Shown here piece after piece: positions 9,643-9,820 of a stretch of 41,435 nt of DNA (the stretch's first letter is position 1; every line of letters begins with the position of its first letter). The position numbers were made by a program, and so were the translations under genes. Origin of the DNA: an uncultured delta proteobacterium. GTDB taxonomy: Bacteria > Desulfobacterota > Syntrophorhabdia > Syntrophorhabdales > WCHB1-27. The notes beneath the pieces are model-generated. The model saw nothing but the letters and a program-made list of their open reading frames with translations. It made no database searches and was not told the origin of the DNA. The DNA is taken from the NCBI GenBank assembly GCA_963810935.1, contig CAWEPK010000018.1, forward strand, positions 1 through 41,435, in the 5' to 3' direction.

Positions 9643-9820
9643 ATGTTTTCTTACCTGCTGTCATCTGACTATACTTATCCCAGGAAGCATCAGGGTGTGA
9701 CAGGCCGATTCCCCCTTGGGACATATGATCCCGGCGCCGAGCGCGGGTCGTCACACCCCATTCCCTACAAGCTCGGACAGTTGCTTGGGCCTCATGAGCC
9801 CGCATTTCGCAAGGAGGAGC
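9643..9820 (+). ncRNA. Predicted IS110 bridge RNA
   Basis: 5' stem (9643-9690). Target loop closed by GGGTGTGAC/GTCACACCC, holding ATTCCCCCT and GCGCCGAG. Donor loop holding ACAGTTGCT and CAAG. Ends are approximate. Confidence 0.82.

Follow-up and report, generated by a model that had tools for sequence, protein, structure and literature searches.

An IS110-group element with an IS621-type bridge RNA in a palindromic intergenic repeat of an uncultured delta proteobacterium, and a sister element with rewritten target guides

IS621 of Escherichia coli, an element of the IS110 group, carries a 177-nt bridge RNA in its left end (PMC11208160, PMC11208158; PDB 8wt6). A second group, IS1111, is defined in section 12 of PMC11208160 by a long right end that holds the RNA and by sub-terminal inverted repeats. 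The covariation study in section 6 of that paper analysed 5,511 target and 2,201 donor pairs. Natural retargeting is also on record: section 10 of PMC11187229 describes ISEc11 and ISXne4, related elements (72% protein identity) whose guides have been rewritten for a new target, their targets sharing only 3 of 13 bp. ISPpu10 and ISPpu9, IS110 elements of Pseudomonas putida, are described as inserting into palindromic intergenic repeats. The element discussed here is thus of a kind already well described. It lies in a stretch of 41,435 nucleotides, called the window below, which lies on contig C18 of a 4.06 Mb assembly of 21 contigs from an uncultured delta proteobacterium.

How does this locus compare? 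Like IS621, it has an RNA in the left end with two loops that bear the conserved bulged A and the conserved G, a CT core, a promoter formed at the junction of its ends, and handshake bases. Like IS621 it is inserted into an intergenic repeat and has a split right donor guide, an RNA model built from its clade matches the IS621 bridge RNA in register, and the two donors are identical at 12 of 14 bases. It differs in that the proteins are only about 33% identical and the target is another one; in its left target guide the conserved G stands one base closer to the core, which leaves a guide of 8 nt; and its right target guide pairs 7 bases, where wild-type IS621 pairs 4 (PMC11208158). Further differences are the handshake bases CG facing donor G7/T6, a right end of about 27 bp, and a predicted ribosome-binding site inside the donor loop. 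ISPpu10 and ISPpu9 resemble it in the palindromic nature of their targets, whereas ISPpu9 has a small RNA downstream of its gene. The nearest named element seen is ISEc32, an IS110-family element of E. coli plasmids with 43.8% protein identity, whose left donor guide is similar but whose target guides and host differ. The 14-bp donor of our element occurs 188 and 424 times in two supplementary files of PMC11208160. Six strings specific to the element are absent from the searched parts of those supplements, which, since they were searched in part and contain gapped alignments, is no proof that the element is uncatalogued.

The element spans positions 9627-10775 of the plus strand, 1,149 bp if both CT cores (9627-9628 and 10774-10775) are counted. 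Its left end is 198 bp long and its right end about 27 bp, the layout of the IS110 group. Membership of the IS1111 group was considered and rejected, since it is the left end that carries the RNA, and the right end is the short one. Full-length identical copies with the same boundaries are found in contigs C7 and C10, and contig C20 starts with a partial copy, 980 bp of which are identical to the element. The first six bases of that contig (C20:1-6) differ from the element, probably as a contig-end artefact. In the window, the left half of the interrupted repeat unit is at 9574-9626, its last seven bases (9620-9626) being the left target arm; the right half, with the next unit behind it, is at 10776-10929 and begins with the right target arm CGGCG (10776-10780). 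The right flanks of all four copies start CGGCGC, and the left flanks, visible in three copies only, all end CTCCCCC, the left junction of the C20 copy being missing. In the left terminus (9627-9636) the left core is followed by the right donor arm TGTAT (9629-9633) and a -10 hexamer, TATCTT (9631-9636). The right end (10755-10775) holds a -35 hexamer, TTGACA (10755-10760), the left donor arm (10767-10773) and the right core. We are confident that this is an IS110-group element of the IS621 type, recently mobile and working as IS621 does, for which we infer both activity and expression.

The recombinase gene (9825-10748, plus strand) encodes 307 aa. Both PF01548 and PF02371 score above their curated cut-offs, and the protein aligns with those of IS621 and ISCro4. 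The open frame has the catalytic residues D8, E51, D93, D96 and S231, for which the IS621 counterparts are D11/E60/D102/D105/S241 (PMC11208158), and the hydrophobic wedge residues Y252, M253 and L256. In a PDB search the solved-structure relatives were ISCro4 and IS621 only; the best match is the ISCro4 bridge recombinase (PDB 9t56; E 4.7e-42 over residues 4-306), which is distant in sequence and is likened here by protein alone. The best named relative, from an uncultured delta proteobacterium, is 81% identical in protein, and close metagenomic relatives reach 89%. An antisense open frame of 321 codons (minus strand, 9635-10600), probably a shadow frame, covers the left end together with the greater part of the recombinase gene; the sister element discussed below has one of 333 codons. 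The assembly holds six further PF02371 matches, belonging to other IS110-family elements (C17:103383, C17:17980, C17:105368, C7:16682, C13:6228 and C5:84241), and, among the candidates scored, the bridge RNA model matched none of these six loci.

What does the left end encode? A preliminary description, made from the letters alone, had pointed to an IS621-type bridge RNA with four guides matching the repeat target and the element's donor junction, and each of these matches is present. The segment ATTCCCCCT (9708-9716) agrees with CTCCCCCCT (9620-9628) at 7 of 9 bases, with one U:G wobble besides; GCGCCGAG (9734-9741) and CAAG (9810-9813) are the reverse complements of 10774-10781 and 9627-9630, respectively; and ACAGTTGCT (9777-9785) is identical to 10767-10775. 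Likewise present are the hairpins proposed with them and the GGGTGTGAC/GTCACACCC stem. Several details had to be redrawn. The coordinates of the target-guide matches hold, but the guides are shorter than had been proposed, 8 nt on the left and 7 nt on the right, since the outer base of each behaves as a linker: the first left position agrees with the respective orthologue's own site in only 4 of 38, and the eighth right base in 10 of 38. The right donor guide includes CAAG but is longer, and the target site is correct except that the degenerate base S written into it can be narrowed to C, the base at all three visible junctions.

The target-binding loop, numbered by analogy to sections 7, 8 and 11 of PMC11208158, extends from 9693 to 9758 (plus strand, as are all parts of the RNA). 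An outer stem (9693-9701/9750-9758) is followed by the bulged A at 9702 and the conserved G at 9707, and an inner hairpin (9718-9732) contains A 9728 and is followed by G 9733. The left target guide is 9709-9716 (7/8 plus one wobble), the right target guide 9735-9741 (7/7), and the handshake guide of this loop is CG at 9742-9743. The donor-binding loop (9770-9820) has its bulged A at 9770, a closing stem of 9771-9774/9817-9820 and a hairpin at 9787-9801. Its left guide is 9777-9784, its right guide is split into AT (AU in RNA) at 9804-9805 and GCAAG at 9809-9813, and its handshake guide is GA at 9814-9815. A single-sequence fold also places a weak stem at 9643-9690, ahead of the target loop, in a poorly conserved region outside our alignment.

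One would like such an RNA to announce itself by its fold, and it does not. The single-sequence check gives no support (z 0.26, no better than shuffles), an Rfam search returned no match, and the IS621-like fold lies 11 kcal/mol above the best fold of the naked RNA. In that best fold the right target guide and the handshake guide are held in a small hairpin, with mean unpaired probabilities of 0.45 and 0.06; one has to suppose that the bound protein determines how the RNA folds. Together with a GC-rich, low-complexity target, the poor z-score and the lack of an Rfam family might suggest a dead element whose matches are fortuitous or relict. We consider this most improbable, given that identical copies occupy four loci, that the open frame retains every catalytic residue, and that stems and guides covary.

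The covariation was measured in orthologues. Both ends could be called at 89 of 129 loci with a strong recombinase match; filtering by flank length and by agreement of the two cores reduced these to 62 loci, comprising 43 distinct left ends, of which 38 were parsed. Over these 38, right target guides agree with their own sites at 4.58 of the 6 non-core bases, and at 1.72 when pairings are shuffled. The left target guide scores 3.74 of 7 in a fixed register (shuffled, 2.20) and 6.79 of 9 when the register is free to shift (shuffled, 4.62); it sits at register 0 in 19 of the 38 and is shifted in the other half. None of 5000 shuffles attained the right-guide or the fixed-register value, and no shuffle the free-register one, although kin are not independent. 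In several orthologues a variant donor is accompanied by the corresponding change in the left donor guide. Of the 32 with a parsed right donor guide, 29 pair the handshake base of the donor loop with base 7 of the target (23 G:C, 5 A:T and 1 T:A). The corresponding count for the target-loop handshake base and donor base 7, 37 of 38, is inflated, as the parser favoured C at that place. In four orthologues (L061:1298-1500, L076:362-562, L008 and L113) the site suits just one target guide well, a pattern that half-match insertion or a rearranged flank would give.

The stems behave similarly. Imposed on an alignment of the same 32 left ends, the IS621-type structure has 93% of its cells paired, with two-sided changes in 19 of 25 pairs, a result that exceeds all 500 of 500 shuffles and all slid controls; RNAalifold, unprompted, arrives at nearly the same stems. 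The covariance model of homologous left ends that the preliminary description had proposed was built, and it finds an E. coli locus that reads as the published IS621 bridge RNA, full length, at 133 of 133 positions (37.4 bits, E 1.9e-7). It also matches ISEc32 (48.5 bits) and a Sinorhizobium element, again full length. With the Pfam matches and the ISCro4 and IS621 structures, these results uphold the proposed reading of an IS621-type layout beside an intact recombinase. Within the assembly the model gave four full matches, all in the known copies, among the 150 of about 1,700 candidates that were scored, and so found no orphan bridge RNA there.

How might the element move? Anatomy, boundaries, recent spread and covariation are read from the sequence; the circle, junction promoter, tetramer, cleavage and exchange are carried over from IS621. 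The element would leave as a circle, whose joined ends would form the promoter TTGACA-17-TATCTT and have the bridge RNA transcribed from about 9643. A recombinase tetramer would hold the two loops, the target loop pairing with the repeat through left arm CTCCCCC, core CT and right arm CGGCG, and the donor loop pairing with the circle junction. Serine cleavage beside the cores and strand exchange would then yield the insertion. By the handshake rule of section 11 of PMC11208158, these bases suit insertion, C9742/G9743 being able to pair with donor G7/T6 and G9814 with target C7. If target position 7 were instead G, the commonest allele of the repeat, the left guide would be mismatched, the donor-loop handshake would be lost, and the handshake bases of the target loop could pair with that loop's own target, a configuration in which IS621 is blocked from exchange.

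The same RNA and guides might serve a different kind of movement, a copy-out through a single-strand circle, partly by half-match, in which recognition of the donor arms alone drives excision, the target loop is a loose filter, and the bias toward C is chance or descent from a single event. A cell-free IS621 study reports single-strand circles and half-match recombination (10.64898/2026.08.31.748434), several identical copies persist here, one run's contig begins at the core, and just three left junctions are visible. We regard copy-out as possible but rather unlikely: the guides fit all four right and three left flanks, and they track targets across 38 orthologues. It would in any case alter the excision chemistry and leave the identity of the element unchanged.

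Contig sets from four DNA runs, all of one study that is maybe the window's own source and so not independent, bear on the same point. No circle joint was seen among the matches listed in the four sets, contigs being prone to drop rare forms. In two sets the element's contig extends back to 9618, as expected if every copy has C before the core. In the third it begins exactly at the core, 9627, as might result from an alternative base ahead of the core (the G allele or a circle) or from a break in coverage. Of the 12 sequencing runs listed, from which these four were drawn, none is an RNA run that holds the element; the right-end motif has no match in viral contigs, and a DNA search of plasmids gave just five short matches.

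The assembly itself provides a further comparison. A sister IS110 element at C8:756069-757216 (L069), 78% identical in DNA and 82% in protein, has the same donor and donor guides as the window's element, yet carries rewritten target guides that fit the site it occupies. That site is a CT lying 7 bp upstream in the host repeat, and the left guide of the sister is shifted by one base. The congener G002 harbors the sister type (L060) and a third type with another target. Like ISEc11 and ISXne4, then, the pair comprises related elements retargeted through their guides; unlike those, both members occur in one assembly, have a common donor, and insert at overlapping positions of a single repeat, 7 bp from each other.

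One might propose that DNA hairpins of the repeat, or the protein itself, set the target, with the RNA match secondary. The host repeat is palindromic, and for ISPpu10 a target stem-loop is reported to add specificity (10.64898/2026.03.19.712850). But proteins that are 82% identical use different positions in one repeat, each according to its own guides, and orthologues with unrelated targets retain matching guides. We therefore think this explanation improbable; a structural gate may supplement RNA guidance but cannot replace it.

Base 7 in the target of the window's element coincides with base 14 in the target of the sister. In the 71 empty repeat units this base is G in 50 and C in 15. Five of these units are perfect for the window's element, 20 for the sister and none for both, because the element's left guide and handshake would need C and the sister's right guide G. 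All three visible filled sites of the window's element have C, against 15 of 71 empty units (P 0.013; by hand, with a stricter empty count of 2 C among 33, P 0.0014), a preference seen at three junctions that possibly represent one lineage. The one sister insertion carries G. The C allele is natural, being found at 11 of 41 sites in G002. On the purE side of the window's element, the repeat has an empty counterpart in G002 with G, and the matching left junction was not seen. In small numbers, then, a single C/G base seems to sort repeat units between the sisters, and placement of the visible insertions in the rarer C allele would follow from the mismatch and the locked handshake that a G allele imposes on guide-directed insertion. 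As the assembly is 7% contaminated and contains strain-like duplicates, the sisters need not share a cell.

The control of expression offers a further point. The junction promoter, TTGACA-17-TATCTT, is sigma-70-like, and 28 of 38 orthologues have at least 4/6 in both hexamers at 17 nt. A linear scan of the element found no full promoter site, the junction promoter being absent from that form. For integrated IS621, low read-through expression is reported in section 5 of PMC13626964. In our element a -10-like hexamer, TATACT (9670-9675), lies 17 nt before the target-loop stem and has no consensus -35. TATACT or TATAAT stands at an equal distance in all nine close orthologues, and a hexamer scoring 5/6 or better in 16 of 35 left ends, with 4.6 expected. 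This box is a possible internal promoter that could provide RNA while the element is integrated.

A Shine-Dalgarno-like sequence of the recombinase gene, AGGAGGAG (9812-9819), overlaps the right donor guide, the handshake guide and the closing stem of the donor loop. Its GA is kept in all nine orthologues of at least 69% identity, with the start codon 11-12 nt further on. The 3' strand of the donor loop thus doubles as the predicted ribosome-binding site, so that recombinase bound to the loop could repress its own translation, and such feedback could operate throughout this clade. If it does, the overlap would constitute an extra regulatory step. A broader scheme, offered tentatively and with less than even confidence, has the sisters, with their shared donor and donor loop, splitting one repeat between them (a niche partitioning with possible cross-mobilisation), while translational feedback and RNA supply from the internal -10 box operate as just outlined. 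In titles and the beginnings of abstracts, with most subscription journals outside the search, we found neither a paper on sister elements sharing one repeat nor a description of a ribosome-binding site overlapping a donor loop.

What use might be made of these elements? The window's element adds another small orthologue (307 aa, with about 33% identity to IS621) to those available for screening bridge recombinases, and its right guide naturally has the full 7 bases. As for the sister pair, it amounts to a natural experiment in which the donor is common, the target loops are two, a single base tells the sites apart and the register of the left guide differs by one base, and it is suited to probing handshake rules, register tolerance and cross-mobilisation.

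The repeat that serves as target is palindromic, lies between genes and recurs on most contigs; 71 of its units have a recognisable target segment. The repeat is modular and forms small arrays, found in the window at 9574-9626, 10776-10929, 12656-12884 and 14873-15077, and has well over 100 matches in the assembly. Its target motif occurs at 41 sites in G002 and at one each in G001, G003, G004 and G008, which points to a recent, lineage-limited spread. A REP-associated tyrosine transposase was considered as its source and rejected, the Y1 matches being seven near-identical IS200-like copies (C5:31473, C7:238548, C3:16772, C8:732035, C12:368507, C8:661833 and C16:101391). Two of the seven are frameshifted, and four adjoin an end of the host repeat.

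The neighborhood of the element in the window has its own history. In G001 and G002, purE follows a gene that is located here on contig C19, and rplC is followed by genes located here on C5; the join of rplC, element and purE (window 9505-11047) was found in neither genome and so does not represent the ancestral order. Repeats or copies of the element may have mediated a rearrangement here, or the assembly may have made the join. The C19 gene that precedes purE in the relatives we take to be of MarC type. Positions 1-9590 of the window recur, about 98% identical, where contig C2 ends, and a portion of them likewise where C5 ends, duplicates that look strain-like and would represent a strain mixture or a duplication. 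The C5 version leaves the window's sequence at the rplC stop and continues with a different IS110-family open frame of 456 aa. The gene for ribosomal protein L3 itself (8861-9505) stands alone, without the usual ribosomal operon neighbors downstream, and a 21-bp inverted repeat (9532-9576) lies 3' of it.
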